From Candidatus Asgardarchaeum abyssi (lineage in GTDB: Archaea > Asgardarchaeota > Asgardarchaeia > Asgardarchaeales > Asgardarchaeaceae), in the NCBI GenBank assembly GCA_040225955.1, contig JBECUL010000027.1, positions 1-31,232 on the forward strand: a stretch of 31,232 nucleotides of DNA. The letters run 5' to 3'. The position numbers and the translations under genes were made by a program. Each line of letters starts with the position of its first letter. Within the stretch, counting starts at the first letter, position 1. Shown here one piece after another: positions 6,924 to 31,232 of the stretch. Under the pieces are notes generated by a model. It was not told where the DNA came from, did not search any database, and was given only the letters and a program-made list of their open reading frames with translations.

Positions 6924-6927
<4 letters not shown>
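6172..6927 (-). CDS. pyrF: Orotidine 5'-phosphate decarboxylase
   Basis: ILALD, KVG, DFKIADIGNT, MSHPG, PGIGAQG and IVGR motifs. Confidence 0.96.
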
Positions 6928-8483
<1,556 letters not shown>

Positions 8484-9851: not shown

Positions 9852-9852
9852 C

Positions 9853-11408: not shown

Positions 11409-11861
11409 GTGAGCTTATTGACAATTCTGAGAGTATCAAATCTTGATGTAGACAAAGTATGTGAGCTGCTTAGTACATCAGAATGCAAATTGATGAAGCA
11501 TTTTATTAGGAAGCTGAATCATTTAGCCGAAATGAAAACAACATCAGATGATGATAAAATTATACAACAACAATGTGAGGTAATTTCATTAATCATGAAA
11601 TACTTTGGTGCAGTCTTTTTATCAGAATTGAATCTTGTGGATAAAAATGCTAGCGAAAATAAATACCTACTAATTCCTGAGAATTCAGATGAGCCAAAAT
11701 TTGAATTTTACCTCCTTAAACTTAAAAATGGATATTTCGCATTTTCCGCCTACAGCACAAATACAGATAATAATAATTTTGAAATATATTTCATCTCAAA
11801 AGACTATGAGAAAGTAAAAAGAGTATTTAACGAATCACTCTCCCTAATTAAAGTAATTTGA
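11409..11861 (+). CDS. Hypothetical protein (150 aa), 10 bp upstream of cas6
   Basis: Protein-like ORF; GGTGA at 11408 suggests the true start is TTG 11418. No recognisable motif. Confidence 0.65.
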   Translation: MSLLTILRVSNLDVDKVCELLSTSECKLMKHFIRKLNHLAEMKTTSDDDKIIQQQCEVISLIMKYFGAVFLSELNLVDKNASENKYLLIPENSDEPKFEFYLLKLKNGYFAFSAYSTNTDNNNFEIYFISKDYEKVKRVFNESLSLIKVI

Positions 11862-12787: not shown

Positions 12788-14200
12788 ATGAAGAATCTCT
12801 TGACAACATTTATCATCCTTATAATTTTGATGTCACTCATTTCCACGAATATTACCATAGTTGACTCATTGAATAATAATAGAGATTACTATGCTAAGAT
12901 CTACTTCTTTGAATTCGTGAGAAATACCACGCATATATTGGTTCAAAAGGCTTTAAAATTATGGCAAGAACATGGCAACAAATCTTACCTCATTTTCCCT
13001 GTGTATAATCAACTGAAAAACAGAGTAAAATCCCCTTTCGATACTAGAACTCTCGCGTTTTTTATATATGCATTCATGAGTACTGGTAATTATGCTTACC
13101 TAAAATACGCTCTTAGAACGGCAAACGACATCATAAAATTAAATTTAACTACAAATCCTGCATACTTCGCTTGGCTCTTTCAGTTTAATAGAAGCTACAT
13201 GGCATATGCTAAAAGGCTAATAAACAATATAATTAAAGACATAACTCCATCTGGTCTACCAGGATATAATAACAAGACGTATAGATTGCCTTGGGATGTA
13301 TGTTCTTCAACCCTTGCACCATTGATAAAAATGTATGAGTACACTCAGAACAAAACCTATCTTGATACTGCTACTAATGTGATTTTCTCAATTTTCAAAT
13401 ATCTGGCAAATAATAAAACCATGCTTTTAAACGATGGCTACAGAATCAATAATTCAAAAATAGAAATAGTTGATAACTTCCAACGAGTCTATTCCGCAGG
13501 ATTATTAATCTCAAATATGTTATATTTATATTTGCTGAGCAAAAATCAAACACTGCTAATGCTCTTAAAGAATTATGTAAAGACCATTATTAAGTACTTT
13601 TGGATGGGAAATCATTGGGCATACAGGGTATACAGCTCTGGAAAAATAATGTACAACTACCTCGAAACCAATTTCTATAAGTTGGATTATGCTTTGTTTC
13701 TTTTTTACCACTATATAGAAAGAAATTCTGCAATATTGAAAATTATAAAGCAAAGTGTCAATTATGCGCTTCAAAAAACACGGTATGGCCTATTTAAACA
13801 TGCATCCTTCACCTCAGACGGACTAATTTATGCACAACTGGGTAGTTTTGTGTATTTACTCAAATTTCTCAATTTGGAGGATGCTATAACTAATAGGACA
13901 TATTCCGTCGTGAACAGCTTTTTGAAAAGATACGGATTCGTTCAGGCAGTATACCTTGAGGACAATATATACGGCTATCCTCCCTACAAACACTTCGACA
14001 TAAGCGAATATGGACCATGTATAACATTCTATAGCACGGCATATATGTATAGCTCCCTATACTTAATTGCTAATACCACTTGGATGCCATTCCCCCTTAC
14101 CTACGACCCTAATGTTGATCTCCCACTCTATCCATACTTTGGATATCCTTCTAATAGCATTTTGATTCAAAAAGGTCAATTAATTATTATCAATTGGTGA
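12788..14200 (+). CDS. Secreted protein with putative (alpha/alpha)6 six-hairpin glycosidase-like fold
   Basis: Signal peptide MKNLLTTFIILIILMSLIS; repeated helical-hairpin motifs (AFMSTGNYAYLKYA, MYEYTQNKTYLDTA, LYLLSKNQTLL); many NxS/T sequons; Tyr/Asn-rich. Confidence 0.55.
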   Translation: MKNLLTTFIILIILMSLISTNITIVDSLNNNRDYYAKIYFFEFVRNTTHILVQKALKLWQEHGNKSYLIFPVYNQLKNRVKSPFDTRTLAFFIYAFMSTGNYAYLKYALRTANDIIKLNLTTNPAYFAWLFQFNRSYMAYAKRLINNIIKDITPSGLPGYNNKTYRLPWDVCSSTLAPLIKMYEYTQNKTYLDTATNVIFSIFKYLANNKTMLLNDGYRINNSKIEIVDNFQRVYSAGLLISNMLYLYLLSKNQTLLMLLKNYVKTIIKYFWMGNHWAYRVYSSGKIMYNYLETNFYKLDYALFLFYHYIERNSAILKIIKQSVNYALQKTRYGLFKHASFTSDGLIYAQLGSFVYLLKFLNLEDAITNRTYSVVNSFLKRYGFVQAVYLEDNIYGYPPYKHFDISEYGPCITFYSTAYMYSSLYLIANTTWMPFPLTYDPNVDLPLYPYFGYPSNSILIQKGQLIIINW

Positions 14201-14397: not shown

Positions 14398-17300
14398 CTT
14401 TCAATTCTACACTAGTCTTATTGAGACTTTCGCAAAGAATGTAAGGTATAGAATTTACATCAGTCAAATAATACCACTTACTTGATGTAGCCTCTGACCC
14501 TGACCCATCGTTTGGATCATTAAGTGTTTTGTTTTCAAACTTTCAATTCTACACTAGTCTTATTGAGACTCGCCCAATGTCTCGAACCTGTAAGCAGTAA
14601 GAAATCTCTTTCAATTCTACACTAGTCTTATTGAGACATTGACAAGGGCATCTACAAGCAGCAAGCAAGCCTGCCTTTCAATTCTACACTAGTCTTATTG
14701 AGACTAATGCGTGATTCTGACTTTACAAAGAAACAAAAAGCTCTTTCAATTCTACACTAGTCTTATTGAGACTTGTAAAAGGAAAAATATCGCGAGAAAT
14801 AGCTAACAAACTTTCAATTCTACACTAGTCTTATTGAGACTAAAACACTCGATATAGGCATTCCTATCGGCACTCTCTTTCAATTCTACACTAGTCTTAT
14901 TGAGACAATATTAACACTCCGCCCGCCACTCGGATCTTATTTCTTCTTTCAATTCTACACTAGTCTTATTGAGACCAGAATATTTTCCGAAGGAGAGCGA
15001 ATGCCATTGGATCTTTCAATTCTACACTAGTCTTATTGAGACACGATTAGGAGTATGGAGGTGTTAGGGAGCAAGATATATAATACTTTCAATTCTACAC
15101 TAGTCTTATTGAGACGATCATCTCAAGGTGAAAGCGGCTCAATTTATCGCCTTTCAATTCTACACTAGTCTTATTGAGACATGAGCCTTCTGACAGTTGG
15201 GCAGTCATCTCCAAACAGTCTTTCAATTCTACACTAGTCTTATTGAGACGGCCCGATTGCGATTTGAGAAATTCTTAAATCAATGCGCTTTCAATTCTAC
15301 ACTAGTCTTATTGAGACGACGCTTACGCTTTATTGAAAACGATAAAAGAGCTACTTTCAATTCTACACTAGTCTTATTGAGACATTGGTGTTTCCGTAAC
15401 CCCAATAGTCAACCTTAAGACTTTCAATTCTACACTAGTCTTATTGAGACACGGACGGTGGTGCTTGGAGATTGGCAGCAAGCCACTTTCAATTCTACAC
15501 TAGTCTTATTGAGACTCGTTGTTCGCTTGCACGACAGCGATGAGAACAAATCTTTCAATTCTACACTAGTCTTATTGAGACTTCGCAACTCTTGAGAGAC
15601 TATGAAGTTTTCATGCTCTTTCAATTCTACACTAGTCTTATTGAGACCGAAGGACATCAAGCAGGATGGCATGATGCGAATAGCTTTCAATTCTACACTA
15701 GTCTTATTGAGACTCCGATTTTCGAGGGGGATGCAGAAAAGTTACCCTTACTTTCAATTCTACACTAGTCTTATTGAGACACATCTGCATCTTCTCAATG
15801 TACTTGAGATTCTCGAAGCTATCTTTCAATTCTACACTAGTCTTATTGAGACAACGCAATGAAGGAAAAAGAAAGCCTCTTTTGTCAGCTTTCAATTCTA
15901 CACTAGTCTTATTGAGACTAAGAATCCACGAGGGTGACGTTATACCGTTACCCGACTTTCAATTCTACACTAGTCTTATTGAGACACTCTTTAAACCAAT
16001 TACTCCAAAATATTGCTGAAAATCGCTTTCAATTCTACACTAGTCTTATTGAGACATGCATACTGGTAAGATTGCTAAGCCATACGTTTAACTGCTTTCA
16101 ATTCTACACTAGTCTTATTGAGACATAGAGCTCACGCAATACTGCCTCTTTTTCTTGCTTCTTTCAATTCTACACTAGTCTTATTGAGACTCTTTTTATC
16201 TCCCCAAGAGTATAAGCCACCAGCTTCTTTCAATTCTACACTAGTCTTATTGAGACAATTAACTACAAAATCTTGATATGTATTGAATAATCGCTTTCAA
16301 TTCTACACTAGTCTTATTGAGACTGAATAAGCTCATCTGCTACTGCAGCAGCTTCTTTCTTTCAATTCTACACTAGTCTTATTGAGACTTATTGGACGAG
16401 GAGAGGCCTATTGATGAGCTTGTAGCCTTTCAATTCTACACTAGTCTTATTGAGACTCTATTTCGGCCGTCTCGCTCTCGCCTTCCTCCGCTCTCTTTCA
16501 ATTCTACACTAGTCTTATTGAGACAGCGTGTATTAGAAGAATCAGAAGAAAGACTACCCGCTTTCAATTCTACACTAGTCTTATTGAGACTGGGGCTGTG
16601 CTCCTTATTCATGACTTTGACGATTTCTTTCAATTCTACACTAGTCTTATTGAGACGAGCTTGCCACGGCCAGCAATTAATTCGAAATCCGCCTTTCAAT
16701 TCTACACTAGTCTTATTGAGACTTATGTCTTTGGTAACATTGCTGTAAACAGTTACGTGCTTTCAATTCTACACTAGTCTTATTGAGACTCCATAACCTT
16801 AATGTTTTTGTCGCTGGATCTTGTTTCTTTCAATTCTACACTAGTCTTATTGAGACAACAAGATCCTATCAAAACTATTAGATAGCTCCTTTGTCTTTCA
16901 ATTCTACACTAGTCTTATTGAGACAGATATCAATCACTTCTTATCACCTTTCTCAGTTTCTGCTTTCAATTCTACACTAGTCTTATTGAGACCAAGAAAT
17001 GCTTAAGTGGTTTGATACGTGGTGGAAACTTTCAATTCTACACTAGTCTTATTGAGACAAGCCATTAACGAAGTCCTCCATGTAGTTATGCTCCACTTTC
17101 AATTCTACACTAGTCTTATTGAGACGGGAGGCATAATCACATGGCGAGAAAAAGATATACTTGCTTTCAATTCTACACTAGTCTTATTGAGACCGAGACT
17201 ACTCCTAAGGAGCTTTTAACAGCATTAGCAATCTTTCAATTCTACACTAGTCTTATTGAGACAGCCTTCACGGCTGGCGATTTCATATGGGAGTTAAGGG

Positions 17301-19911
17301 CCTTTCAATTCTACACTAGTCTTATTGAGACGCTTTATCTCTTGCCGTCTGAATTAATGCTGTGTTACTTTCAATTCTACACTAGTCTTATTGAGACATA
17401 GCTATCGTAAGTTGTAGTTGTTGAATCTGCTACTCCTCTTTCAATTCTACACTAGTCTTATTGAGACAGGAAGAAGACGATGAACTCGATGAATGATACA
17501 AAAACTTTCAATTCTACACTAGTCTTATTGAGACTTTGCACTTATTCGAGTTCGACGTGAAAATCAGAACGGTTGCTTTCAATTCTACACTAGTCTTATT
17601 GAGACTATGCTGCTGTTAACTTGCACAATTAAAATGCCGTTCCTTTCAATTCTACACTAGTCTTATTGAGACCTTAAAAATACTTTTAGCAACTGCTAAA
17701 TCTGTAACTGCCTTTCAATTCTACACTAGTCTTATTGAGACTAATTCGAGTACTTCCTCCTTTATTGCACTTGAATAAAACTTTCAATTCTACACTAGTC
17801 TTATTGAGACTAGTTTTTAGTATATCAAGAGTAAAACCTCTCGTGTTGCTTTCAATTCTACACTAGTCTTATTGAGACATTCTACAACAATATCTCGTGC
17901 AATGTTTTTCAATTCCTTTCAATTCTACACTAGTCTTATTGAGACAATAAGAAAACATAAGAAGTTAGACATGAGAAAAACTTTCAATTCTACACTAGTC
18001 TTATTGAGACGGTGGGTGCAGAGATAGACATATATCACAATCGAAACTTTCAATTCTACACTAGTCTTATTGAGACCGTTTTCATAATCGAGACACTGCC
18101 ATATCTTCTTGATCTTTCAATTCTACACTAGTCTTATTGAGACATATGTGGGCATGCCAGAGCCAGTGAAACTGAAACCAGCTTTCAATTCTACACTAGT
18201 CTTATTGAGACGATATGAAGATGTCCACGTCTATGTGTGTTATGTCCTCACTTTCAATTCTACACTAGTCTTATTGAGACGATACAAGCAGGTAATGTCA
18301 CAGTCTCTGGTCAAGTTGATGCTTTCAATTCTACACTAGTCTTATTGAGACAAACCTATTACTGTAAACATGGTAATTCTAAACATTTTCTGCTTTCAAT
18401 TCTACACTAGTCTTATTGAGACAGAAGAGCTGTGCTATTTCTATAAGCACAAGAATAGCTTTCAATTCTACACTAGTCTTATTGAGACTTTCTTTTTGTT
18501 TTTTTATTGTATTGGATAATGCAATCTTTCAATTCTACACTAGTCTTATTGAGACTCGACATTTTTATATACACCTCAAACGAATCTTATTCCAGGCTTT
18601 CAATTCTACACTAGTCTTATTGAGACTCTAATGGTGTTATATCATGATCAAGAGCGATGTTGCTTTCAATTCTACACTAGTCTTATTGAGACTCTAATTT
18701 TTTCTGATATGCCCCGATATCGGGAATTTCTTTCAATTCTACACTAGTCTTATTGAGACTTTATGTACTCCCACACATCGTCATCCGTCCACAATCCAAC
18801 TTTCAATTCTACACTAGTCTTATTGAGACTTTTTATCACCTTTACCTAATGCCTAATTTCTTAGGCATTCTTTCAATTCTACACTAGTCTTATTGAGACC
18901 GAGACAAAATAAAGCCTCGCTTGGCCAAATCATAAAAACTTTCAATTCTACACTAGTCTTATTGAGACAAAAGTCTAATAAACATTCTATTTGAGACAAG
19001 TGACTTTCAATTCTACACTAGTCTTATTGAGACTTTTTCCCCGAAAAAATATAACGCACACTCTATTCATCTTGCTTTCAATTCTACACTAGTCTTATTG
19101 AGACACGCTCTGTAAACTCTGACATTTTTTGAACTATAGAACTTTCAATTCTACACTAGTCTTATTGAGACACCTACCCTACAAGAGAATCATAATATGC
19201 GATAGGGACTTTCAATTCTACACTAGTCTTATTGAGACATAAATATTTAATTAGTAGTTTTTACTACAAAAATTTCTTTCAATTCTACACTAGTCTTATT
19301 GAGACTCGTTCAACTCCATCTTCACCAACAATTCTAAGAGCTCTTTCAATTCTACACTAGTCTTATTGAGACGTGAAGTGATGTCCAACCAAATGCTCCA
19401 GTAAGTGTCTTTCAATTCTACACTAGTCTTATTGAGACGCGAAACCGTATTTCTGTTATCTAACACTCTACCAGCCTTTCAATTCTACACTAGTCTTATT
19501 GAGACTAGCTCAGGTGGGACCGGTGTTGCTGTGTTAAGAGTTTCTTTCAATTCTACACTAGTCTTATTGAGACTCCAAGCGAATTACTCCGAACTGCTCT
19601 GTCCCAGCCTCCTTTCAATTCTACACTAGTCTTATTGAGACATCATAACTTTTAAAAACAAAAACATATTTTGTATTCTTTCAATTCTACACTAGTCTTA
19701 TTGAGACAAGAAAGGAAAGTTACCTGGTTTTACCCAACCATTGTCCTTTCAATTCTACACTAGTCTTATTGAGACAACGGTGACTCTCTAAAATAATCCT
19801 TCAAGAGAGATCTTTCAATTCTACACTAGTCTTATTGAGACGTTGGTAGCATCCAAATGTAGTTTGGGTCCACATACTTAACTTTCAATTCTACACTAGT
19901 CTTATTGAGAC
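14398..19911 (-). CRISPR. CRISPR array: 81 repeats / 80 spacers; repeat GTCTCAATAAGACTAGTGTAGAATTGAAAG (crRNA sense); spacers mostly 35-43 bp
   Basis: Identical 30-bp CTTTCAATTCTACACTAGTCTTATTGAGAC on + from 14398 to 19911 (hand count). The ATTGAAAG end and the leader on the right give the - orientation. Confidence 0.98.
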
Positions 19912-20203
19912 AGGCGTGGTTTATTTCTTTTTTCGGGTAAATAAGCTTTTTCCTTCCTTTTTCTGCTTATAAGGGTTCCAAGATCCCCATAACAGTGTGA
20001 TTCCCTAAGGGATATCCGACGAATTCTTTAACCTTTATTTTGAAAACAAAGGATTTTAAAACGGCTATGATAAAAAATGTTAGTTTTCCTCGTGATAAAC
20101 TTATCTAAAGGTGTTCATATTTTTCCATTTGCGGAAATAAGCAATTTTTGATACATGATATTTTATGAGCATAAAATATATAACAGTGTGATGTTGGAAA
20201 TTT
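19912..20203 (-). promoter_or_regulatory. CRISPR leader 1 with BRE/TATA (GAAAAAGCTTATTTA on -, 19938-19952)
   Basis: AT-rich, abuts the terminal repeat and is homologous to 30940-31231 in inverted orientation. Confidence 0.9.
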
Positions 20204-20285
20204 TACGAGAGAGAATAAATATATAAAGAATTCCAAATTTGATATAGAAACATTACAAGTAACTTCTAACTTAGTATATATTTTA

Positions 20286-21848
20286 TTGACTGGTGATAAG
20301 AGGATGTTGCAAGGTTTTTTAAGGCTGGTTTTTCCATTTTTTCTTCCTCATGAGCATTCATTCAAGGTAAAGCAGAAAGTATTAGATGATGTAATGAATG
20401 CTTTATGCAATTTCTTTCAAGAAGAGGCAGATTCTACATCGGGCACTATATGTCCGACTATTTTTAAGAGAAAGATTTTGTATTTGATTTACCAGAGGAT
20501 GTTAACTCTTCATAAAAAGGCTATTTTGAATCTTTTAGACATAGCTCTATTACGGGAAGACGTAGAAGGAAGGGTGAAGGGATATTTTGATGGGAATCGA
20601 TTTAGGCTATCTGTTGATTTACTTTTCTCCCCAGCTGGTTTTATCTTTGTTGTTTTTAGTGGGGAGTTTCATGCAAGCGAAACAACTCTTTTTTCGATTC
20701 TTACTAACAAAAAAGTGCCAGAGTTTAGTTTTGGTGGTAAAAAAAGCACTTTGCAGAGTATTGCCATAAATATCACACGACATTTTCTTCAAAAGATGAC
20801 CTCCCAAGATAATCTTATTGCTAATTTGCTTACTCCTTACTTTATTGTTGGATTTAACTCAAAGAGTGTAGCGTCTTTAGGAGACGTAGGATCCTTTTTG
20901 AAAGGTGTTTGTATTAAGGACGCCAATTGGAGAACACGGGCTGTTTGGCCAACTCGTTTAAAAAGAATTGGGAATAGAAAGGGTGACATAATTATATTGT
21001 GCAGAGGTGGTATATCGTATATCGTGCCAACACTAGAGGGGAAGCAACTGATTTGGAAGAGAAAGCGTTTTAGAGAGAGGTTGTCATTCATTCAAAACAT
21101 AGTTATTCAGCAGAGCTTCTTGCTGAGTGAGATTAAAAATAATCTTTCAGAGCTTCTAATTGTGTCAGATTACAAAACAAAAATTGAAGTTCTTAATATG
21201 GTATTTCAATCGTTGAATCCATATGTATTTCTCGATAAGTCGCTGGACATATTTCAGTCCTCATTGCTTCTGAAAACTTATAAGAGCTTTGTAGAAATTT
21301 ATGAGATACAGAGTTTGTATGACAACTTGTTAAATGACATAAAACTCGCGATTTCCAGATTTCCTGCAAGTGAATTTATAGAGATTTTTGAGTATTTCTA
21401 TAAAAGGAAGATTCCAAAAGTAAACGCTATGCTTGGGCTTTTAAGGCAAGAGAAAGAGAAAGAAGATGTAATTCAAATGATTATAAAAACGTATAATGCT
21501 CGGCTTGAGGAAAATGAACTAAAGGTTATTGATGTACTTGCTGAAAAATACATTGAGGATGTAATTTCTATCATGAAATATAGAAGACCTATCATGAGTC
21601 CTGAGGATGCTGGGTGGCTCTCTACAAATAAAATTCAAATTCTTACGGGTATAAAGAAAAACATAATATTTGGTACTTCTACTACGGTCAGTCCCCTAAA
21701 GAAGTTGCTTTTATGGGATTTAATTGAAGTTAAAAAGCCAAAAAAAGCAGTGGGACGTGCTACATACTATAGAATAAAGTTCAAAAATGAACTAATCAAA
21801 GAGTACCTTAAGAAGGTGTATTTTGAGAAGTTCCAGAGTAATAGTTAA
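20286..21848 (+). CDS. Hypothetical protein with C-terminal winged helix-turn-helix (likely start ATG 20304)
   Basis: GGTGA at 20292 precedes ATG 20304. The C-terminus LEENELKVIDVL...LSTNKIQILTGIKK...LKKLLLWDLIEV...GRATYYRI has a wHTH pattern. No TM segment is apparent. Confidence 0.7.
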   Translation: MTGDKRMLQGFLRLVFPFFLPHEHSFKVKQKVLDDVMNALCNFFQEEADSTSGTICPTIFKRKILYLIYQRMLTLHKKAILNLLDIALLREDVEGRVKGYFDGNRFRLSVDLLFSPAGFIFVVFSGEFHASETTLFSILTNKKVPEFSFGGKKSTLQSIAINITRHFLQKMTSQDNLIANLLTPYFIVGFNSKSVASLGDVGSFLKGVCIKDANWRTRAVWPTRLKRIGNRKGDIIILCRGGISYIVPTLEGKQLIWKRKRFRERLSFIQNIVIQQSFLLSEIKNNLSELLIVSDYKTKIEVLNMVFQSLNPYVFLDKSLDIFQSSLLLKTYKSFVEIYEIQSLYDNLLNDIKLAISRFPASEFIEIFEYFYKRKIPKVNAMLGLLRQEKEKEDVIQMIIKTYNARLEENELKVIDVLAEKYIEDVISIMKYRRPIMSPEDAGWLSTNKIQILTGIKKNIIFGTSTTVSPLKKLLLWDLIEVKKPKKAVGRATYYRIKFKNELIKEYLKKVYFEKFQSNS

Positions 21849-23437
21849 ATCTCTATTTCTAAGTGTTTCCAAGATTGCTTTTCTATGTCAAATAGGTCTT
21901 TCCTGAATTTCCAATAAACTCCATAAGCTAAATCTCCAACATAGATTCTCTTATCAAAAAGACTTGGATAGAATAGTTTAATGGCATTTAAAAAACCTCT
22001 AGATCCTCCAGGAGGCAAGTTTATTAATGATACAATGCACTCACTACTTCTACTCCACGAAGTAGTCACTCGTGGTAATTCATTTAAAGCTGAAGCAAGA
22101 CGTAATGCTTCATCCTCATCAAAATCGCCAACTATTAGTGCACTTTCTACAAGACCCAACATTCCCGCACTGGCTCTTCTTACAATAACTTTATTTTCTC
22201 TGAAAAATTTGAGTTTCTCGCTGAGTCTATTTGCACCAATCCTAAGCTTTTTTCTTAGATCTATGAAAGATATTTCCTTCTTATTCCAAACGTATTCTAG
22301 GATTTCTAAATCCTTTTCATCGAGATTTTTTATAACTTGAGGTGAAACCTTACTTAACGTATGTAAGTTATCTATGGGCCCCTCTTCCATTATCTTTTTG
22401 AGAAAGACTCCCCAGCTGTACCATGGAATATTCCATCTTCCGTTTCTATTATCATAAAGACGAACATTAATATACCTCACATCAAAACCATCTATTCTCA
22501 TTATTCTATAAGATACTGATCCTAGCTGCTTCGACAGTTTACTAGCAAATCTATCTAATATTGAGTAGTATGTATTTGTGTGTGGGCCGAGAAAAACCAA
22601 TAGAGCGGGGTTTGGACCATAAGGTATTTCATGAGCATTACAAAAGTATGGGTGCTTCTTTAATACACTAATGATTTCACTCCAATTTCCACCTGATTCA
22701 AAGAACACCAAATATGTAGATAGCCCGATCAACCAAAAATTAATTGTATCTTTCCATATAAGGATATAGCGTCGTCTAAGAGAATTAATGTGATTAGAGA
22801 GGGTAGCTTCCTTTATCTTCAGCGCCTTGGCAATTTGCGAACTTTTACTTGGTTGAAATCTGAGAATATACTCCAGTATTAATTTATCTGTATCTGAGAA
22901 TTTAGTGGCATATGTGGTCATATATTCTTCAAGGATTAGCGCATATTTTTCGAAATCTATTTTTTCCCTATACCTGTTTAGTCTCCAAAAAAGAGGCATT
23001 ATCTCAGATAAAAATTTTCCATTGCTGACAACGTTAAAATCTATAAATCCTTTTACGGGTCTATAGACAAACTTACCACAAAATGTTTTTTCTGGAGACT
23101 TAGCTTTCCAAAGTTCAATCCAAAGTTTTCTTACTTCTTCATTATTTTCAACTCCGATGTATGCATATAGCATTGCTAAATCATCCGATTCTTCTACATC
23201 TTTAAGATTGGGTGGCATAAATAATTTGAATACAAAAAAGCGAATTGCAGCTCTTAGTAGATCATCATCTTGCAAAAATAATTCAGGAATAACTAATATA
23301 TTGTCATCTGGTTTTTCTGCAGCTCCTATAGCTATCTTAATTGTGCTAATATCCAGCTCTCGCCTAATCCCTAAATATTCTCTGCATTTCAAAATTTCTT
23401 CTTTTAAGATATCTTTTATTTGATTAACAATACTCAT
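21845..23437 (-). CDS. Large putative transcriptional regulator with an N-terminal helical domain and two Lrp/AsnC-like HTH + ligand-binding modules
   Basis: HTH1 FSDTDKLILEYI...SQIAKALKIKEATLSNHINSLRRRYIL followed by INFWLIGL; HTH2 LDEKDLEILEYV...DLRKKLRIGANRLSEKLKFFRENKVI followed by MLGL. TATA-like TTTATAAG on - at 23471-23478. Confidence 0.7.
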   Translation of the reverse strand: MSIVNQIKDILKEEILKCREYLGIRRELDISTIKIAIGAAEKPDDNILVIPELFLQDDDLLRAAIRFFVFKLFMPPNLKDVEESDDLAMLYAYIGVENNEEVRKLWIELWKAKSPEKTFCGKFVYRPVKGFIDFNVVSNGKFLSEIMPLFWRLNRYREKIDFEKYALILEEYMTTYATKFSDTDKLILEYILRFQPSKSSQIAKALKIKEATLSNHINSLRRRYILIWKDTINFWLIGLSTYLVFFESGGNWSEIISVLKKHPYFCNAHEIPYGPNPALLVFLGPHTNTYYSILDRFASKLSKQLGSVSYRIMRIDGFDVRYINVRLYDNRNGRWNIPWYSWGVFLKKIMEEGPIDNLHTLSKVSPQVIKNLDEKDLEILEYVWNKKEISFIDLRKKLRIGANRLSEKLKFFRENKVIVRRASAGMLGLVESALIVGDFDEDEALRLASALNELPRVTTSWSRSSECIVSLINLPPGGSRGFLNAIKLFYPSLFDKRIYVGDLAYGVYWKFRKDLFDIEKQSWKHLEIEI

Positions 23438-23483
23438 GATACTTCACAAAACATCATTATGAATTAATAACTTATAAATATTC

Positions 23484-23552
23484 AAAAAATAAAAATAAAA
23501 ATGGCGAGGGGTGAGGCAGCTTGAGCGTGCCTCACACGGGGCATATGCCCCG
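23484..23552 (-). terminator. Two GC-rich hairpins followed by an oligo-T tract, downstream of the 23-aa ORF
   Basis: On -: CGGGGCATATGCCCCG palindrome (23537-23552), GTGAGGCA-N9-TGCCTCAC (23511-23535), then TTTTTATTTTTATTTTTT. Confidence 0.6.
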
Positions 23553-23565
23553 ACCCGATGACCCG

Positions 23566-23637
23566 CTATCCATCAATTGGCCAAGGCCAATCGTCATCGG
23601 GTGGCCAATCTGGTTCTGGGGTTGATTTGAGCACCAT
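23566..23637 (-). CDS. Unannotated 23-aa peptide MVLKSTPEPDWPPDDDWPWPIDG
   Basis: ATG at 23637-23635 and TAG at 23568-23566; GGTGA RBS 6 nt upstream, the same RBS type as neighbouring genes; repetitive DWP motif; GC-rich island in AT-rich DNA. Confidence 0.65.
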   Translation of the reverse strand: MVLKSTPEPDWPPDDDWPWPIDG

Positions 23638-24000
23638 CTTAGCTCACCGAGAAAAATAAAGCATGAAAAAGCTTCTCATTTTTGTAACAAAAATATCAGC
23701 ACCAGAAAAGCTTAAAATTCAAATCTGACATCGTAGATTTGTTCATTTTTAGTAAAATGAGCTAGGAAATCCCTAAAGTGATTATGGAGCTTATCTGTAA
23801 AAAAATTCGAAAAATCACAACCTAAGTTAAAGAAAATTACTATCTTTATATAAAGAATCAAAGGATCCAATATGATTCGAATTTAAATATTATTTAGTAG
23901 ACTTTCCGATGCGTTATAAGACCATTTATTAGATAAAAACATTTAAATTAAAACAGAAAAATTTAGTTATTTTTAATATAATTCAAGGCTGGTATGATAA

Positions 24001-25296
24001 ATGCTCGATTATTGGATTCAAAATGGAGATGCCTTTTATCTTAAACTTCAGAAAGATTATAATGTAAAGAACGTAGAAGAAACATTGAATTACCTTAATG
24101 AGCTTTTTGATACGATCTTCAGAAGAGATGGATCATTAACTATTTTTTCACGAACATTCTTTAGTGCACTTAATATTAAAAATTTAGAGGACCTTATACT
24201 GAAGGTTCAAAAGTCATTCTCAAATTATAAGGAGAGCAAGAATAAGGCTTGTATAATTTGTGGAAGGGATGGCGCAGGTACGGGAAAGGGATGGTTCTAT
24301 CCATTTATTATCACGAAAGATAAGTTCCCGAATATTTATCCTAATGCCAAGATAGATGCTATAACTTTTTGTAGGGATTGTGCTCTCCGCAGTTTACTTG
24401 CATACCATAACGTATTCTTTAGTGCACAGAATGATTATCTTACGTTTGTATTATTTTTCTCTGATAACGCAGAGTCCCTAATGTACATACTAGAAAAGAT
24501 AAAAAGAGAGGAAGCAGCCGAATACTACTTCAATATGAAATCTCTTGATAAAGTGTACTTTCCATATGAGTACCTTGCAGTTTTGCTTGACGCAATGACC
24601 TACAGAATTGAACGTGAAGAGCTTTTTAAGAGATCCCTTGGAGGTATTGTCTTCGGCTTACCAATTGGTAAAAGTAAGAAGAAAATCTTCGATTATGCTG
24701 AAGTTGTTACAAGACTAAATGATGTCATAAGGGCTTTCTTTAATTTCAGATATAGAATGGAAAAGAAATTTGGCGCTTCTGGTACTAATTACTTTAAAAT
24801 ACTATTCCAAAGTTTAAGAAGAGATCCAGGGCAAGATAGAGGCGATTTTATCGATAGAAATCAATTCTTTAGGTATATAATTAGATATGGTGAAATAAAC
24901 TGGAAGATTGCTGAGAATATTTTATTCTATAATATTAGAGCTGAGAGGAGAGGGTATCCTCCACCATATTTTACGGATTTCATAATATCAGTTTTGGAGG
25001 TGTTTAACATGTCTGAGAAAGAACTATTTGAAAAAGTTTCTAATATGGGGTATAGTTTGGGAAAATCCTTATTGCAGACCGAGAAGGATCCTAAAAAGGC
25101 AAAGCAACTTGCATTTGAGCTCAGACGGAAGCGAAAGCTGGAAGAATTTTTGGACGAACTAAATTTGATACAGCTCCATGCGGAAACAACAATCGATGAT
25201 AGGCCATTTAGGGAGAATGAAAAACTCTTTCCAAAGCTAAAAGTATTTTTCCTTATTGGGTTTGCTAATGCGATCTTTTCTAAAGAAAAAAGCTAA
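24001..25296 (+). CDS. cas8b: Type I-B Cascade large subunit (CxxC-CxxC Cas8b/Cst1-like)
   Basis: CIICG...CRDC Zn motifs; first gene before cas7-cas5-cas3. Confidence 0.82.
   Translation: MLDYWIQNGDAFYLKLQKDYNVKNVEETLNYLNELFDTIFRRDGSLTIFSRTFFSALNIKNLEDLILKVQKSFSNYKESKNKACIICGRDGAGTGKGWFYPFIITKDKFPNIYPNAKIDAITFCRDCALRSLLAYHNVFFSAQNDYLTFVLFFSDNAESLMYILEKIKREEAAEYYFNMKSLDKVYFPYEYLAVLLDAMTYRIEREELFKRSLGGIVFGLPIGKSKKKIFDYAEVVTRLNDVIRAFFNFRYRMEKKFGASGTNYFKILFQSLRRDPGQDRGDFIDRNQFFRYIIRYGEINWKIAENILFYNIRAERRGYPPPYFTDFIISVLEVFNMSEKELFEKVSNMGYSLGKSLLQTEKDPKKAKQLAFELRRKRKLEEFLDELNLIQLHAETTIDDRPFRENEKLFPKLKVFFLIGFANAIFSKEKS
25009..25296 (+). CDS. cas11: Cas11-like small subunit (95 aa) from an internal in-frame start in cas8b
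   Basis: GGAGGTG at 24996-25002, 6 nt before the in-frame ATG 25009 (MSEKELFEKV...); helical C-terminal domain. Confidence 0.75.
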   Translation: MSEKELFEKVSNMGYSLGKSLLQTEKDPKKAKQLAFELRRKRKLEEFLDELNLIQLHAETTIDDRPFRENEKLFPKLKVFFLIGFANAIFSKEKS

Positions 25297-25313
25297 ATTA
25301 GGGGGTTGAGAAG

Positions 25314-26201
25314 ATGAGAGCAAGGTTTATGGAGTTAACATTTTTAACAAAATTAGAAAAAACAAATGTTAACGCTAGCGGCACCGAGGGCAATATAACT
25401 GTTTTAAAGAAGACCGAGGATATTGATGGTACACAGAGAGTATATATCTCTGGAGCATCAATAAAGTACGCTATAAAGACCTATTTGAGTGAGTTAGGAT
25501 GGAAACTATCTCCCATAAAACGAAAAACAAAAACAGCACAAATTACTACTCAATGTGATGAAGAAAAATATATTGATGACGATTTGTTTGGATATATGGA
25601 TACCGAAACTGATAAGAAAAGGATCGCACCCGTTAAGACAAATGGTATGATATCAATATTCCCCTATAAGGGAGATATTGATAGAGGCGTTCGCTTTGAC
25701 CCAGAAGGAAAAGAGCATAGCATGTTTGATTTAGAAATCACAACGAATGTGTTCAGATCAAATTGGGCTATTGAACTAGACAGAGTTGGAGTCATCGAGT
25801 CAGAAAATAAAGAATTACCTGCTGATGAGAAAAATAAGCGAGTGAAGGCCCTTCTAACAGCAATTCTAAATCTATGGAGTCGAGTTAAACAGACAAATTA
25901 TCTAACCAAAATGTCACCCGATATTCTTGTACTGGTGTTTAGAGACGACAAGACATTGACAGTCGGCGATAAGCTTCGAATCGATGAATCCTATAATCTA
26001 GATATTGATGCACTAAAGGAAGTCTTAGATTATCACAAAGATGGTATTAAAGAAGTTTACATTGCAGGATTCGGTTCCTTCCTGAACAATTGGGATGAAT
26101 TAGTGAAAGAACTAAATGGCTACTTAGATGGAAAAGTAAAAGTGATGAAATTAACAGAGTTCAAGAATTTAGTTCTTAGTGAAGACTTTAAGTTTTTCTA
26201 A
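25314..26201 (+). CDS. cas7: Cas7 (Cst2/DevR-like) Cascade backbone subunit
   Basis: GNITVLKK, YISGASIKYAIK, YIDDDLFGYM and IELDRVG motifs. Confidence 0.92.
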   Translation: MRARFMELTFLTKLEKTNVNASGTEGNITVLKKTEDIDGTQRVYISGASIKYAIKTYLSELGWKLSPIKRKTKTAQITTQCDEEKYIDDDLFGYMDTETDKKRIAPVKTNGMISIFPYKGDIDRGVRFDPEGKEHSMFDLEITTNVFRSNWAIELDRVGVIESENKELPADEKNKRVKALLTAILNLWSRVKQTNYLTKMSPDILVLVFRDDKTLTVGDKLRIDESYNLDIDALKEVLDYHKDGIKEVYIAGFGSFLNNWDELVKELNGYLDGKVKVMKLTEFKNLVLSEDFKFF

Positions 26202-26218
26202 CAAAAAGGTGACTCTTT

Positions 26219-26920
26219 TTGAAGGGGGTACAATTTAACATACGAGGTGAGTTTGCACATTTTAGAAATCCATACACTATTTCATTTTTTGAAACACTAT
26301 TGGCCCCTCCCAAGACAACTATCGCAGGAATTCTGGGTGCTGCAATGGGCCTTGATGAGAAAGAAACTATAGAATTTACGAAAAAAATTCGTGCTGGTAT
26401 TAAAATTAGAAAAATTGCAGGATTCATGAAGGAGTTAACTACGTTTTATAACCTAAAATCAAAAAAGGAACCTACAAAAACTCCAATTCTTCGAGAGGTA
26501 ATAGTAAAACCAGAATACACAATTTATATTGGTTCTGAGGATGACGATTTAGTTGATCAAATAATTTCTGCATTGAAAGCACCAGAGCATCCGCTCTATC
26601 TGGGTATTAGTGACTATATAGCTCAACACGACTCAATAACAGAAGTAGAGTTTTCCGAAATTGAGAATGACTCCTTTGAGTGCGTTATACCATATTCAAA
26701 AGATATAAAGTATATTCCAGAAAACATTAATTTAAAGCCAGGCGCATTTTACATCGCGCCTAAAGTTTATCGAACGGTGCTCGAATATAAATATTCACCT
26801 AAAGGAAGAATTCCTGTACGATTTATTGATCTCATTATGTTCTATGGTTACACCCTTAAGCTTAGTAAAGCGATGAAAGCTTTTAAAACTTCAAAGGGGG
26901 AGGTAGTGTATCTAATATGA
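26219..26920 (+). CDS. cas5: Cas5
   Basis: GEFAHFRNP, PPKTTIAGILGAAMG and LYLG; TTG start with GGTGA RBS. Confidence 0.93.
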   Translation: MKGVQFNIRGEFAHFRNPYTISFFETLLAPPKTTIAGILGAAMGLDEKETIEFTKKIRAGIKIRKIAGFMKELTTFYNLKSKKEPTKTPILREVIVKPEYTIYIGSEDDDLVDQIISALKAPEHPLYLGISDYIAQHDSITEVEFSEIENDSFECVIPYSKDIKYIPENINLKPGAFYIAPKVYRTVLEYKYSPKGRIPVRFIDLIMFYGYTLKLSKAMKAFKTSKGEVVYLI

Positions 26921-29091
26921 CCCTGATGGCAAAAGATGATGAAACGCTATTACAACATTCTCTTAATACTCTAGAAAAAGCAATGGAGCTAACATCACAG
27001 ATAAAAAATAATAATTTAAGGCTATCCTCTCTACTTGCAGCTGCTTTACATGATATGGGCAAGGCTGATTCTCGCTTCCAGAAATACTTAATTGGGGGAC
27101 CTAAACCTCCTTCACACCCTCTTCTTAGTTTACCTATAGCTCATTATGTTCTTGAATCAATAGATTTGCCCGTTACCTTTAAGCAATTAATTCTTCTTGC
27201 CATTGCATCACATCATTCACCGTTTAAAAAAAGCTTATATGATAAAGTTAGTCTAAATTTGGGCATTCAATTGGATGATAATGCAATCTCAGAATTGAAT
27301 GAAATGATCTCTACAATTCTAAATAAAATAGGTCTAGAGTGTAAAATTTCTCTTTCTCTAGGCGCTTTGGAAAAACCAATAGTCGTATTTGAGTATGCAA
27401 AGGAGTATGTGATCCACGAGGCTAATTTTGAAATGAGAAATTTCTTCTCGATAATTTCTGGAACCCTTATGGCCGCAGATTACTATGCAAGTTCTCATAA
27501 GGAAATACCTCGACCCAAGATTCCAACAAGTTATGTTCCTATGCCTTATGATTACCAACTCAAAGCTTCCAGAATTAAAGGCAACCTGTTCATAATGCTT
27601 CCAACTGGAAGTGGTAAAACTGAAACGGCTCTATATTGGGCCTCCTCAAACTTCAAGAACAAGCTTTTTTACGTGCTTCCAACAACAACCACAATAAATG
27701 CTATGTTTCGTCGATTGAGAGAAAAATATAGCTTCGAAAAAAGACAGATTAGCTTTTATCACAGCTACGCAGATATGTTTTTGTTTATCGAGGGAGATGA
27801 AAATGAAGAAGACTTGCTCTTCTTTAAATATTTCCTGTACCCCATTTCTGTCACGACACCCGATCAGCTAATTTTAACCCTCCTAAATCATAAGAGATAT
27901 ACCCTCAAAAATTATGGGTTCCTTCGATCCACTTTTATTTTTGATGAAATTCATACATATGATGCAGAAACATTTTTCCTGATCAAGTATCTGCTCAAGT
28001 ATTTGCAAGAATACGACGTAAAAGTATGTGTGATGAGTGCTACATTCCCAGAAAAATACAAGGAAGAGTTAGAATTTCTTAACGCGGTAGATCTCCTTAG
28101 TGCAGATGAAGTTAAATCAATCTACAAGTCTACTAAGAGAACCATCCCTATAGTCTATCAGGATAGCATTTTTAATCATGTTAATGAAATAGTGAATGAA
28201 TATGAAAAGGGAAAGAAGGTCCTAGTAGTTTTGAATACCGTTAAAAGAGCCCAAGAAATGTACTCCATACTTAAAGAAAAAGTAAATCGCATATTACTCT
28301 TTCACAGTAGATTTGCCTTTGGCCATAAAATTAAGAAGGAGGGAAAGATCACAGGTACTGGGACCGATAAAGAGTTTTGCTCACAACCACATATTCTAGT
28401 TGCTACTCAAATTGTAGAGGTATCTCTGGATGTAGATTATGATGTAATGTTTACTGAGGCTGCATATCCTGACTCTATCGTACAAAGAGCTGGACGTGTC
28501 AACAGAAGAGGTCTTAAATCAAAAGCTTTTGTAAATATATTTACTCCAGAAGCCCCTCATCCCTATAAAAAGCAGTACCTTGAAGTCTCTTTAGGCCTTT
28601 TAGAAGAAGTAAGTTCTAAATATAACTCTGAACTGGATTATGTAGAGCTCACTAATGACTTCTATAACTCCATATGGGACTATTTGAAAAAGGAGGAAGA
28701 AGATAGATATCAACGTATGTGGAAACTCTATCTTAACTACATCTTCTCCGCAGACTTAAGTGATATCAGAGTACAAGAACTTTTGAAAACTCGCAGTGGC
28801 ATTCTAACAATCCCTGCGTATCCAAATACCTTCAGATTAAAAATTGAATGCATAAATGAAAAAATTGAGAAATTAACTTCCAAAATAAGGAAACTGAAGA
28901 AATCTCGCGAGAAAGAAAGGCTTAAACGAAAAAGAATGAAGTGGGTAAGGAGAAAAAGGTTGTACCTTGTTAACGTACCAGTTTTTTATAAGGACTATCT
29001 TGAATATGACAAGTATCATAACGAGTTTTATGTCACGCTCAAATATGACACAGAATATGGCCTAAGAGATGAAATGGATAACATGATTTGA
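26917..29091 (+). CDS. cas3: Cas3 HD nuclease-helicase fusion
   Basis: HD domain (LLQHS, HDMGK, SHH, AADY); helicase motifs PTGSGKT, DEIH, SAT and QRAGRVNR. Confidence 0.96.
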   Translation: MTLMAKDDETLLQHSLNTLEKAMELTSQIKNNNLRLSSLLAAALHDMGKADSRFQKYLIGGPKPPSHPLLSLPIAHYVLESIDLPVTFKQLILLAIASHHSPFKKSLYDKVSLNLGIQLDDNAISELNEMISTILNKIGLECKISLSLGALEKPIVVFEYAKEYVIHEANFEMRNFFSIISGTLMAADYYASSHKEIPRPKIPTSYVPMPYDYQLKASRIKGNLFIMLPTGSGKTETALYWASSNFKNKLFYVLPTTTTINAMFRRLREKYSFEKRQISFYHSYADMFLFIEGDENEEDLLFFKYFLYPISVTTPDQLILTLLNHKRYTLKNYGFLRSTFIFDEIHTYDAETFFLIKYLLKYLQEYDVKVCVMSATFPEKYKEELEFLNAVDLLSADEVKSIYKSTKRTIPIVYQDSIFNHVNEIVNEYEKGKKVLVVLNTVKRAQEMYSILKEKVNRILLFHSRFAFGHKIKKEGKITGTGTDKEFCSQPHILVATQIVEVSLDVDYDVMFTEAAYPDSIVQRAGRVNRRGLKSKAFVNIFTPEAPHPYKKQYLEVSLGLLEEVSSKYNSELDYVELTNDFYNSIWDYLKKEEEDRYQRMWKLYLNYIFSADLSDIRVQELLKTRSGILTIPAYPNTFRLKIECINEKIEKLTSKIRKLKKSREKERLKRKRMKWVRRKRLYLVNVPVFYKDYLEYDKYHNEFYVTLKYDTEYGLRDEMDNMI

Positions 29092-29628
29092 GTGGTTCAT
29101 ATGGACGACGAATCTATTAACAAACTTTTGAGAAAATTACAACTAGGCGGGACGCAGATTAACTATTATTTCATCTGTAAAACGAAATTATGGCTCTTTT
29201 CCCATAAGATAACATTCGAAGACACTTCGGACTTGGTCAGGCTCGGAAAGTTGTTACATAAAATGTACTACAACAAAGAAGAAAAAGATGTAATTATTGA
29301 TTCTATTGCTATTGACTTCATTAAAAATGGCAATGTGTTGGAGGTTCATGAAATAAAGAAAAGTGACAGAGAATTCGAGGCAGATAAATTTCAAGCACTA
29401 TACTACCTCTACTTTTTAAAGAAAAAAGGGATCTCTAATGCCGTTGCTATAATAAACTATGTGAAGCTGGGAAAAGTAGTGCGTATCACCCTATCTGAAG
29501 AAAGTGAACGCGAAATCAAAGAAGTAATTGACGAAATCAAATCTATAATCTCTTTAGAAAAACCTCCAGAACCTGTTAAAATGAAGAAATGCACAAATTG
29601 CGCATATTATTACTTTTGCTGGGGATGA
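29092..29628 (+). CDS. cas4: Cas4 exonuclease (start possibly ATG 29101)
   Basis: GTQINYYFICKTKLW, IDF, EIKKS, QALYYLY and C-terminal CTNCAYYYFC Fe-S ligands. Confidence 0.95.
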   Translation: MVHMDDESINKLLRKLQLGGTQINYYFICKTKLWLFSHKITFEDTSDLVRLGKLLHKMYYNKEEKDVIIDSIAIDFIKNGNVLEVHEIKKSDREFEADKFQALYYLYFLKKKGISNAVAIINYVKLGKVVRITLSEESEREIKEVIDEIKSIISLEKPPEPVKMKKCTNCAYYYFCWG

Positions 29629-29637
29629 CAAATAACA

Positions 29638-30612
29638 ATGAAAAAGAACTTCTATATCACTCAGGATGGAATATTAAAAAGAAGAGAGAATACGATATAC
29701 TTTGTTAACAAGGATAAACGTGTGCCAATCCCTATCGAGCAAATCCACACTATCTACATAACTGGAAATGTAACTCTTTCATCTCAAGTTCTGCGACTCC
29801 TCTCTCAAAAGAAAATTGAGGTTCACATTTTTAACAAGCATGGATTTTATACTGGTTCCTTTTACCCGAGGGAAAAATACGTCTCTGGCAGTTTGATAAT
29901 AAAACAAGCTGAACATTATTTAAACCATCAAAAAAGAATTTACCTGGCAAAAAGCTTCGTTAGAGGGGCCGCATTAAACATCAAAAAGAATTTAGCATAT
30001 TTTAAAATATCTGGAGTTTCAAACGAAATAGACCTAATACTCGCAGAAATGGACTCTGCAACCTCTATATCTGAAATAATGAATATTGAAGCCAGAATCA
30101 GAATAAAATACTACGAGTCTCTCGATAGTATTCTTCCTGAAGATTTCTCTTACGTCAGAAGAACAAGACAACCACCAGAAAACAGATTCAATGCACTTCT
30201 GAGCTTCCTCAACTCTCTTCTCTATTCAACAATCTTAGCAGAACTCTATCACACACAGCTCAATCCAACCATATCCTATCTGCATGAACCATCTGAAAGA
30301 CGCTTTTCTCTTGCATATGACATTAGTGAAATCTTTAAACCATTTATCGTCGATCGACTGATATTCTATCTGATTAATAAACGAATAATAAAAACCACAC
30401 ATTTTATTGATGATCTAAACGCATGTCTCCTTAATAGCGAGGGAAAACGTATTGTTCTAAGATACTATGACGATAGGCTAAAAAGTACAATTAAACATAA
30501 AACACTAAATCGCTCTGTCTCTTATCAATTTCTTATACGTTTAGAGGCCTACAAACTCATTAAACATCTTCTAGGATTGAAAGTCTATAAACCCTTTGTA
30601 ATTTGGTGGTAA
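29638..30612 (+). CDS. cas1: Cas1 integrase (type I-B-like)
   Basis: R.RQPPENRFNALLSF, LNPTISYLHEP and LAYDISEIFKP. Confidence 0.97.
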   Translation: MKKNFYITQDGILKRRENTIYFVNKDKRVPIPIEQIHTIYITGNVTLSSQVLRLLSQKKIEVHIFNKHGFYTGSFYPREKYVSGSLIIKQAEHYLNHQKRIYLAKSFVRGAALNIKKNLAYFKISGVSNEIDLILAEMDSATSISEIMNIEARIRIKYYESLDSILPEDFSYVRRTRQPPENRFNALLSFLNSLLYSTILAELYHTQLNPTISYLHEPSERRFSLAYDISEIFKPFIVDRLIFYLINKRIIKTTHFIDDLNACLLNSEGKRIVLRYYDDRLKSTIKHKTLNRSVSYQFLIRLEAYKLIKHLLGLKVYKPFVIWW

Positions 30613-30615
30613 TAC

Positions 30616-30876
30616 ATGTACCTGATAGTAGTTTATGATGTGGCGGTAGAACGAGTAAATGCTGTCAAAAAATACCTTAGGACTCAATTAACATGGATTC
30701 AAAACTCTGTGTTCGAAGGAGAAGTCACCCCTTCTCAATTTGAGGAAATAAAAAGCGAAATTAAAAACCTTATCGATGAAAATCACGACTCGGTAATCTT
30801 CTATATCATGAAATATCCGAACTTCAAAAAAGAAGTAATGGGTGTTGAGAAGGGATCTGTGGAAAATATCTTGTGA
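30616..30876 (+). CDS. cas2: Cas2
   Basis: YLIVVYDV, WIQNSVFEG and DSV. Confidence 0.97.
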   Translation: MYLIVVYDVAVERVNAVKKYLRTQLTWIQNSVFEGEVTPSQFEEIKSEIKNLIDENHDSVIFYIMKYPNFKKEVMGVEKGSVENIL

Positions 30877-30939: not shown

Positions 30940-31232
30940 AAATTTCCAACATCACAATGTTATATATTTTATGTTCATAAAATATTATATATAAAAAATG
31001 GCTTATTTCCGCAAATTGAAAAATATAAACGTCTTTAGATGAATTTATCACAAGGAAAATCAAAATTTTCCAGTTTTATGATCTAAACACGTTCTATTTC
31101 AAAAAATAAGCAAAATGAGAGTGTCGGAGATCTCTTAGGAGATCACACTGTTATAGGGATCTTGGAACCCTTATAAGCAGAAAAAGGAAGGAAAAAGCTT
31201 ATTTACCCGAAAAAAGAAATAAACCACGCCTG
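30940..31232 (+). promoter_or_regulatory. CRISPR leader 2 (inverted copy of leader 1); the final G is probably the first base of a repeat of a second array outside the window
   Basis: The reverse complement of the last 77 nt is identical to 19911-19987, and similarity continues to 30940/20203. BRE/TATA GAAAAAGCTTATTTA at 31191-31205. Confidence 0.88.

Follow-up and report, generated by a model that had tools for sequence, protein, structure and literature searches.

A predicted peptide-responsive regulatory module coupled to CRISPR-Cas loci in Asgard archaea

Three genes lie between the leader of a CRISPR array and a type I-B cas operon in Candidatus Asgardarchaeum abyssi (assembly GCA_040225955.1, contig JBECUL010000027.1, positions 1 to 31,232; this whole stretch of 31,232 nucleotides is called the window). 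They encode a winged helix-turn-helix (wHTH) protein (A), a protein with a tandem Lrp fold (B), and a peptide of 23 amino acids. Together they are probably an undescribed peptide-controlled switch for Asgard antiviral immunity. The specific reading that we favour, at odds slightly better than even (roughly 55%), is a peptide-responsive transcription module that controls cas or array transcription and is coupled to CRISPR-Cas in Asgard archaea. That the system is tied to CRISPR is concluded from neighbourhood statistics. New here are the split of B loci by their third partner, the exchange of A for a CARF-wHTH protein, and a peptide core shared across loci of one genome. Searches of the literature on the module and on Asgard defence found no paper that describes the module, and a 2026 paper on the Asgard defensome (PMC13700489) never mentions Lrp, CARF or a peptide. 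Below, genomes, loci and contigs are labelled G, L and C, the window genome being G000 and the window contig C27.

Results

Open reading frames run from 20286 to 21848 on the forward strand (A) and from 21845 to 23437 on the reverse strand (B, 530 amino acids), convergent and overlapping by 4 bp at 21845-21848. A has 520 amino acids when counted from a TTG at 20286, and the ATG at 20304 is the likelier start (20304-21848, 514 amino acids). The peptide gene (23566-23637, reverse strand, 23 codons) lies between B and cas8b, with B downstream of it on the same strand, and has a Shine-Dalgarno (SD) sequence, GGTGA, a few bases before its ATG. The array leader (19912 to ~20203, reverse strand) was placed by comparison with a second leader, 84% identical, where the contig ends (30940-31232, forward strand; the array of this leader is not assembled here); the array therefore reads leftwards and gene A is divergent from it. 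On the other flank the peptide and cas8b start 363 bp apart and are divergent, and the AT-rich intergenic region between them (23638-24000) holds the divergent promoters of the peptide gene and the cas operon, without a repeat-like element. The same layout was present in an independent metagenome assembly (L264, 99.4% identical). These results agree with the initial annotation, which had described two convergent genes of ~520-530 amino acids with helix-turn-helix-like domains, a peptide gene, and divergence from the leader on one side and from cas8b on the other. It had also stated that the module shares promoter regions with both arms of immunity; intergenic regions are indeed shared with the leader and with cas8b, and shared promoters or operators are putative.

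The A family is rare (24 of 400 genomes). Among its 28 loci, B was found within 1.5 kb in 18 (and more weakly in two others), cas genes or an array within ~5 kb in 17, and both in 11. As a background, 63 of 1902 other genes (3.3%) are equally near cas in the window genome, which is CRISPR-rich. For B, 124 genes were surveyed, and a few of the cas calls in this survey rest on a single cas6 or csa1 gene. B accompanied by A was cas-linked in 11 loci and not in 6, and B accompanied by a Csa3-like CARF-wHTH protein was cas-linked in 18 and not in 9. With either partner, B was thus cas-linked in 29 of 44 cases, compared with 4 of 42 when it had neither; the remaining B genes are on short contigs. 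A Csa3-like gene stood in A's place at 33 of the 124 B loci, and A and CARF-wHTH never occurred together at one B. A Fisher test on this split (p = 5e-8) is not relied on because the genomes are kin. A quick tree of B requires the cas label to change at least 10 times, so the CRISPR link is not one inherited event. B with the peptide appears as a widespread Asgard core, mostly away from CRISPR, and modules of all three genes are found repeatedly in type I-B, I-D and III cas loci across several Asgard families. The initial annotation had named a preponderance of homologs away from CRISPR loci as evidence against its proposal. This is the case for B and peptide alone (4 cas-linked, 38 not), whereas the form with a second winged-helix protein, A or CARF-wHTH, is CRISPR-linked, apart from about one third of those loci.

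Gene order varied between loci. G135 repeats the window layout (array, leader, A, convergent B). A and B are in tandem in C24 (type III), in G035 (array, A, B, cas6 operon) and in the type I-D loci of G004, G026 and G329, divergent in G073, and at opposite ends of one cas cluster in G003 and G046. Both A copies of the window genome are in cas loci. A peptide gene is present at all three array-bearing cas loci of this genome, with A and B on C27 and C24 and head-to-head with a CARF-wHTH gene on C19.

Some related loci have arrangements of their own. At C24:23403-27182 (L047), the tandem A and B and a divergent 26-amino-acid peptide lie between a type III RAMP operon and cas6 with an array. In G046 (L209:9660-11473), A and a Pro-rich peptide of 15 amino acids stand between type I-B and type III operons, with B 10 kb off at the far end of the cluster. 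A third B paralog of the window genome (C37:548-3248, L048) has no cas genes and is convergent on a TRIP13/Pch2-like AAA ATPase; the open reading frame divergent from it upstream has 15 codons and is not Pro-rich. In one Asgard family (L033, L084, L086, L089, L092, L093, L097, L098, L101, L111) a fixed peptide/CARF-wHTH/B cassette comes after csa1, where a type I-D operon ends, and many of its peptide genes are without an SD and have TCGAT shortly before the ATG.

The window peptide is acidic and rich in Pro and Trp, with the core Pro-Asp-Trp-Pro-Pro-Asp-Asp-Asp-Trp-Pro-Trp. Its gene lies inside a GC island (62% vs. 34%) that is neither a tRNA nor a member of an Rfam family. Paralogs at C173:1343-1420 and C19:11360-11434 share with the window peptide the Pro-Asp-Trp-Pro-Pro-Asp-Asp part of this core and the Asp-Gly end, with synonymous differences, which settles the strand of the peptide gene as minus. 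An antisense frame of 26 codons (23545-23625, forward strand) was rejected as the peptide gene and is taken as a shadow because it has no SD and no relatives, whereas the minus frame matches the two paralogs. Of 83 B genes, 38 had an SD-led Pro/Trp mini-ORF no more than 1.3 kb away, compared with 3 of 188 control genes; this ratio is optimistic, since hits had already been seen when the search rule was drawn up. Under a relaxed rule many more appeared near B genes, often without an SD. An independent genome-wide filter returned six Pro/Trp ORFs in the 2.6 Mb of the window genome, three of them within 330 nt of B-type genes and one beside CARF-wHTH. Nineteen peptides, including that of the window, share an [Asp/Glu]-Trp-Pro-Trp core, and all four codons are used at the invariant Pro, which indicates selection on the peptide at the protein level. 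The tails are clade-specific on the B tree. By these sequence comparisons the peptide is encoded by a mini-gene that is under selection and stands on its own. In the window it is without a signal peptide, in that it lacks a hydrophobic stretch (best 12-residue hydropathy -0.68) and an in-frame stop stands just upstream. The homologs in G041 and G028 are precursors of 38 amino acids with a hydrophobic signal and a conserved 12-amino-acid tail, and two more relatives (G014, G083) have hydrophobic peptide leaders.

The peptide stop is followed by GC-rich hairpins and a T-tract (23480-23565, reverse strand; fold z -3.4), a candidate terminator. The first hairpin pairs with the coding sequence, and the same arrangement was seen in three paralogous peptide genes. 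A TATA-like box at 23471-23477 (reverse strand), ~35-40 nt before the start of B, is by its pattern a candidate for B's own promoter.

The peptides of C19 (L242) and C173 (L241) have an identical C-terminal part of 16 residues, and each gene stands head-to-head with the gene of a Csa3-like CARF-wHTH protein; A and B are missing from both loci. Of the two, C19 is the Cmr locus of the window genome, with cas1 and an array, and C173 adjoins a gene resembling by eye a HerA-type ATPase. Near-identical short ORFs with Pro/Trp ends also occur at C6:31714-31773 and C134:1880-1942, far from any B gene; they may be shadows, because the C134 ORF overlaps the end of a DNA polymerase-like gene. Peptide-core matches in high-GC viral and soil contigs were set aside, as their loci have no B, A or CARF gene. 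Among these contigs, viral ones of ~69% GC (L278-L323) contain many short frames ending in a Pro-Asp-Trp-Pro-Pro-Asp-Asp-like motif, and these are taken as unrelated.

The AlphaFold (AF2) model of B had a pLDDT of 93. In it, residues 180-530 form two wHTH-RAM modules in one chain, matched by Foldseek to Lrp/AsnC regulators (probability 1.0 to PH0061, PF0864 and ST1022; VIA Z 8-9) and to the fused NirDL, in line with the tandem-Lrp assignment of the initial annotation. The top structural match was the sirohaem decarboxylase NirDL (Z 15.4, rmsd 5.3, 281 residues), and Pfam placed HTH_24 at 181-222 and, weakly, HTH_34 at 377-421. Residues 1-177 have the catalytic-domain fold of gluzincins (zinc peptidases) and were aligned by VIA to M1 aminopeptidases and thermolysin, with Z 9.9 to tricorn factor F3 (rmsd 4.4, 168 residues), 9.2 to puromycin-sensitive aminopeptidase (rmsd 4.2) and 7.8 to thermolysin. 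None of 85 B homologs has the zinc motif HExxH; the consensus there is Arg-Glu, and window B has Phe-Phe. No His or Cys is conserved at 60% or more in this set, and Asp86, Trp106 and Trp110 are conserved in 82-94% of it. As modelled, B is a single-chain Lrp pseudo-dimer fused to a peptidase fold without zinc ligands. Such a zinc-less fold with conserved residues would have the look expected of a peptide-binding sensor, and cleavage of a partner repressor by B is unlikely because the zinc ligands are absent from its sequence.

A library-wide search returned 123 relatives of B, most of 490-590 amino acids, and a profile of the 85 homologs had matches at E 1e-20 in 209 of the 400 genomes of the phylum, with shorter double-Lrp proteins counted among them. 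A copy 99% identical to B is labelled 'Candidatus Odinarchaeota archaeon', and the named relatives are Asgardarchaeia. Word-indexed homolog searches recovered only the query proteins themselves, searches for loci with degenerate patterns were unproductive, the families being too divergent, and Atlas feature searches all stayed below 0.9. Complex prediction for a close B homolog (G041) with its 38-amino-acid precursor gave a score of 0.02 against a mark of 0.32, which is evidence neither way. One assembly (L324:11560-13077) is identical to 19901-24400 of the window but for an in-frame 75-bp deletion in B (residues 300-324, the end of the first RAM domain), either a real variant or an assembly error. 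The sequencing runs that contain the window stretch are marine, sediment and vent metagenomes; no RNA run was listed among them, and DNA contigs from such runs yielded strain variants only.

Protein A comprises a putative alpha/beta N-terminus, a helical middle with a near-invariant Asn-Pro (305-306) and a C-terminal winged helix. In the structure model its residues ~390-510 fold as an ArsR/MarR-like wHTH (Z ~9 to HlyU, BigR and MarR proteins), and an Atlas shape search with A matched this wHTH only. A itself has no Pfam hit, and 20 A proteins gave no Pfam, PADLOC or PDB match outside the helix-turn-helix. No catalytic-type residues are conserved in the family beyond Asn-Pro, and the family is held together by leave-one-out profiles. 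For a lead to CorA at the N-terminus, hhalign gave a probability of 1.3% against 20 Asgard CorA proteins, in a region whose model is too poor for fold comparison. Proteins of ~400 amino acids that resemble A and have no wHTH (G017, G041, G028, G006) were excluded from the A counts. Such A-like proteins of ~400 amino acids without a winged helix share a conserved non-CRISPR neighbourhood in two other Asgard families (L145, L146, L147, L192).

The view of the initial annotation that neither protein resembles Csa3, WYL or CARF regulators stood in part. Csa3, CasR and CARF3 profiles matched only helix-turn-helix residues of B (155-226, with one weak match at 364-420), the rest of the chain having other folds, and CARF profiles had no match to window A, whose N-terminal half has a model pLDDT below 50; yet a Csa3-like CARF-wHTH protein replaces A in many relatives.

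Elsewhere in the window, the array (14398-19911, reverse strand) has 81 copies of a 30-nt repeat and extends leftward from its leader. A TATA-like box lies in the leader 62 nt from the first repeat. A sigma-70 scan, of a kind unsuited to archaea, gave results below chance. An AT-rich palindrome of 22 bp at ~20157-20178, kept in the second leader at ~30963-30984, is a candidate site for a leader-binding protein. The spacer farthest from the leader (14428-14539) measures 112 nt and is probably two spacers around a decayed repeat. The type I-B operon, cas8b-cas7-cas5-cas3-cas4-cas1-cas2, occupies 24001-30876 (forward strand), and cas6 (11872-12624, forward strand) lies past the leader-distal end of the array. 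Between cas6 and this end stands a glycoside hydrolase family 76-like gene (12788-14200, 470 amino acids), a gene of 150 amino acids that matches no known family (11409-11861) lies upstream of cas6, and 1081-10620 holds an unremarkable cluster for pyrimidine biosynthesis (CTP synthase, dihydroorotate dehydrogenase subunits, PRTase, OMP decarboxylase, ATCase, dihydroorotase).

Discussion

We propose that B and the peptide are a general Asgard circuit, which a second winged-helix protein would couple to CRISPR-Cas. B would have the Pro/Trp peptide as its ligand, which would most likely occupy the cleft of the dead peptidase domain, and binding of the peptide would alter DNA binding by the Lrp pseudo-dimer. 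A would tie this circuit to the cas and leader promoters, a slot that the Csa3-like CARF-wHTH protein may fill in other lineages, and A and B would set transcription from the two flanking regions, with 23638-24000 (peptide/cas8b) and 19912-20303 (leader/A) as predicted targets. Lacking an export signal, the window peptide would work within the cell, as feedback or to relay a signal; some relatives export theirs. The initial annotation had proposed an undescribed signal-responsive system controlling array and cas expression. Its tie to CRISPR was borne out by the neighbourhood statistics, whereas control and signal response are what we infer, and no operator was found. A more far-reaching version, which we consider doubtful, is that archaeal peptide signalling of a new architecture controls Asgard CRISPR immunity and relays between systems. 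The near-identical peptides of C19 (type III) and C173, under Csa3-like CARF regulators, would then pass a cyclic-oligoadenylate alarm to the B of the type I-B system, and exported forms elsewhere would act in a quorum-like manner between cells.

Several observations weigh against a peptide-responsive module of this kind. About one third of the three-part modules have no cas gene within 6 kb, and in the f5 family the cassette lies where a type I-D operon ends and not where its promoter is. B is not next to the peptide genes on C19, on C173 and in G046 (one), so that a different protein could be the receptor. The N-terminal half of A is modelled with a pLDDT below 50. The genomes are related, so the counts overstate independence. 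No operator common to the leader, the cas8b promoter and a paralogous locus emerged beyond shuffled sequences.

In a narrower scheme, which we consider unlikely, only A (or CARF-wHTH) would regulate cas, and B with its peptide would be a general self-regulating circuit that travels with A and with defence islands and does not feed into CRISPR. B and peptide alone are rarely near cas (4 of 42), G110 and G037 have A in cas loci with no B beside it, and B-type genes, shorter tandem-Lrp proteins included, are found in 209 of 400 genomes compared with 24 of 400 for A. However, A adjoins B in 18 of 28 loci and in at least three orientations, which points to joint selection, and peptide genes stand beside A or CARF-wHTH in cas loci even where B is missing. 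Chance insertion of a mobile cassette, the other option of the initial annotation, might explain the variable gene order and the patchy distribution of A (24 of 400 genomes), but it is already largely refuted: 17 of 28 A loci are at cas genes or arrays against the background of 3.3%, the three-gene form recurs in I-B, I-D and III cas loci of several Asgard families in varied gene orders, the composition of the module is like that of the rest of the genome, no flanking repeats or recombinase were seen around it in the window, and both A copies of the genome are in cas loci.

Other alternatives concern what the single parts do. Polyproline motifs and leaders ending in Trp...Pro-stop (TnaC) stall ribosomes. 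The peptide might act in cis as a stalling leader or attenuator, in which translation of the Pro-Pro and Trp-Pro codons would open or close the overlapping terminator hairpin and so set read-through into B. Its gene is upstream of B on the same strand in the window, and in four paralogs the hairpin pairs coding sequence with bases after the stop and is followed by a T-tract. We regard this as quite unlikely, as peptide genes mostly lie in divergent or convergent orientation to the genes beside them and have no downstream gene that could be attenuated, B has a TATA-like box of its own (by pattern), and exported peptide precursors exist. It is very unlikely that the module is a toxin-antitoxin or abortive-infection accessory, with the N-terminal domain of A as an effector held by the peptide or B and a cell dependent on its cas locus, as in CreTA. 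The position between the leader and cas8b of a type I-B system would suit this logic, as would a short SD-led ORF with hairpins, which resembles CreT RNAs (PMC8501985); on the other hand there is no creA-like degenerate repeat, no spacer matching the promoters and no tandem rare codons, conservation is of amino acids and not of codons, and the 20 A proteins gave no effector match in PADLOC, Pfam or PDB and have no conserved catalytic-type residues beyond Asn-Pro. Highly improbable is the idea that B, as a NirDL/AhbAB-like enzyme or a non-canonical peptidase, processes the peptide to give a modified natural product. NirDL as the top structural match (Z 15.4), the aromatic Trp-X-Trp core and the signal peptides of some precursors speak for it. 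Yet B homologs have no His or Cys conserved at 60% or more and no HExxH, their frequent neighbours include no radical-SAM, P450 or transporter family, and NirDL is itself derived from the Lrp fold.

We know of no earlier description, in archaea, of a peptide signal that is made by ribosomes and has its cognate transcription factor. If the peptide-responsive module is real, it would represent a new receptor design, with a disabled peptidase fold as a peptide sensor on a single-chain Lrp dimer, and a new mode of CRISPR-Cas regulation. It would also place peptide signalling in the Asgard archaea, to which eukaryotes are more closely related than to any other microbes. Many pairs of peptide and B, both cognate and non-cognate, are at hand, and the ligand has only 23 residues.

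In its proposed way of working the module is closest to the RRNPP pairs (Rgg/SHP, PlcR/PapR, Rap/Phr and the arbitrium pair AimR/AimP). RRNPP receptors are built of TPR repeats and occur in Bacillota. Both kinds of system have a DNA-binding regulator beside a tiny cognate peptide gene, often head-to-head, clade-specific peptide tails and, in some lineages, exported precursors (the RRNPP family is treated in 10.1101/2023.09.19.558401). B would differ in its fold, as the gluzincin fold and the tandem Lrp account for its confident model, and the module differs in its archaeal host, in that most peptides, including that of the window, have no signal peptide, and in the third, wHTH gene that ties it to CRISPR. 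CapP/CapH and IrrE/DdrO likewise place a protein of zinc-peptidase fold and a helix-turn-helix protein beside, and divergent from, an immune operon. When CapP, an active HExxH protease, senses ssDNA, it cleaves CapH (10.1101/2022.04.27.489752). B, in contrast, has HExxH in none of 85 homologs, carries two wHTH-RAM modules of its own and is accompanied by a peptide gene.

With Lrp/AsnC and NirDL/AhbAB proteins B shares the wHTH and RAM fold, present twice in one chain as in NirDL; it differs by an additional pseudo-peptidase domain of 177 amino acids, a length of 530 amino acids in place of the single, oligomerising module of ~150 amino acids of Lrp/AsnC regulators, the link to a peptide gene and the lack of a conserved His. 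NirDL/AhbAB have a conserved haem-binding His, whereas no His reaches 60% in B homologs and no haem-pathway genes are among the frequent neighbour clusters. Csa3/CasR proteins of the CARF-wHTH type are also winged-helix regulators in archaeal cas loci, and Csa3-like genes flank two paralogous peptide genes of the window genome, but neither window protein shows a CARF match. The CreTA and CreR RNAs of type I-B systems (PMC8501985; 10.1101/2023.03.10.532045) resemble the peptide gene as small structured elements with an SD and a mini-ORF upstream of cas8. The peptide gene differs from them in having no degenerate repeat and no rare-codon pair, and in amino-acid conservation with synonymous change; in the search for a repeat-derived creA guide the best match to the repeat was 17/30, reached by 101 of 200 shuffles, and no self-targeting spacer was found. 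In its action the module would resemble an RRNPP pair and in its position it resembles CapP/CapH or Csa3, but the features tested admit it to none of these families. The family features that it lacks, together with the gene-context evidence, argue for a separate class, whose function would be the peptide-responsive control proposed here.

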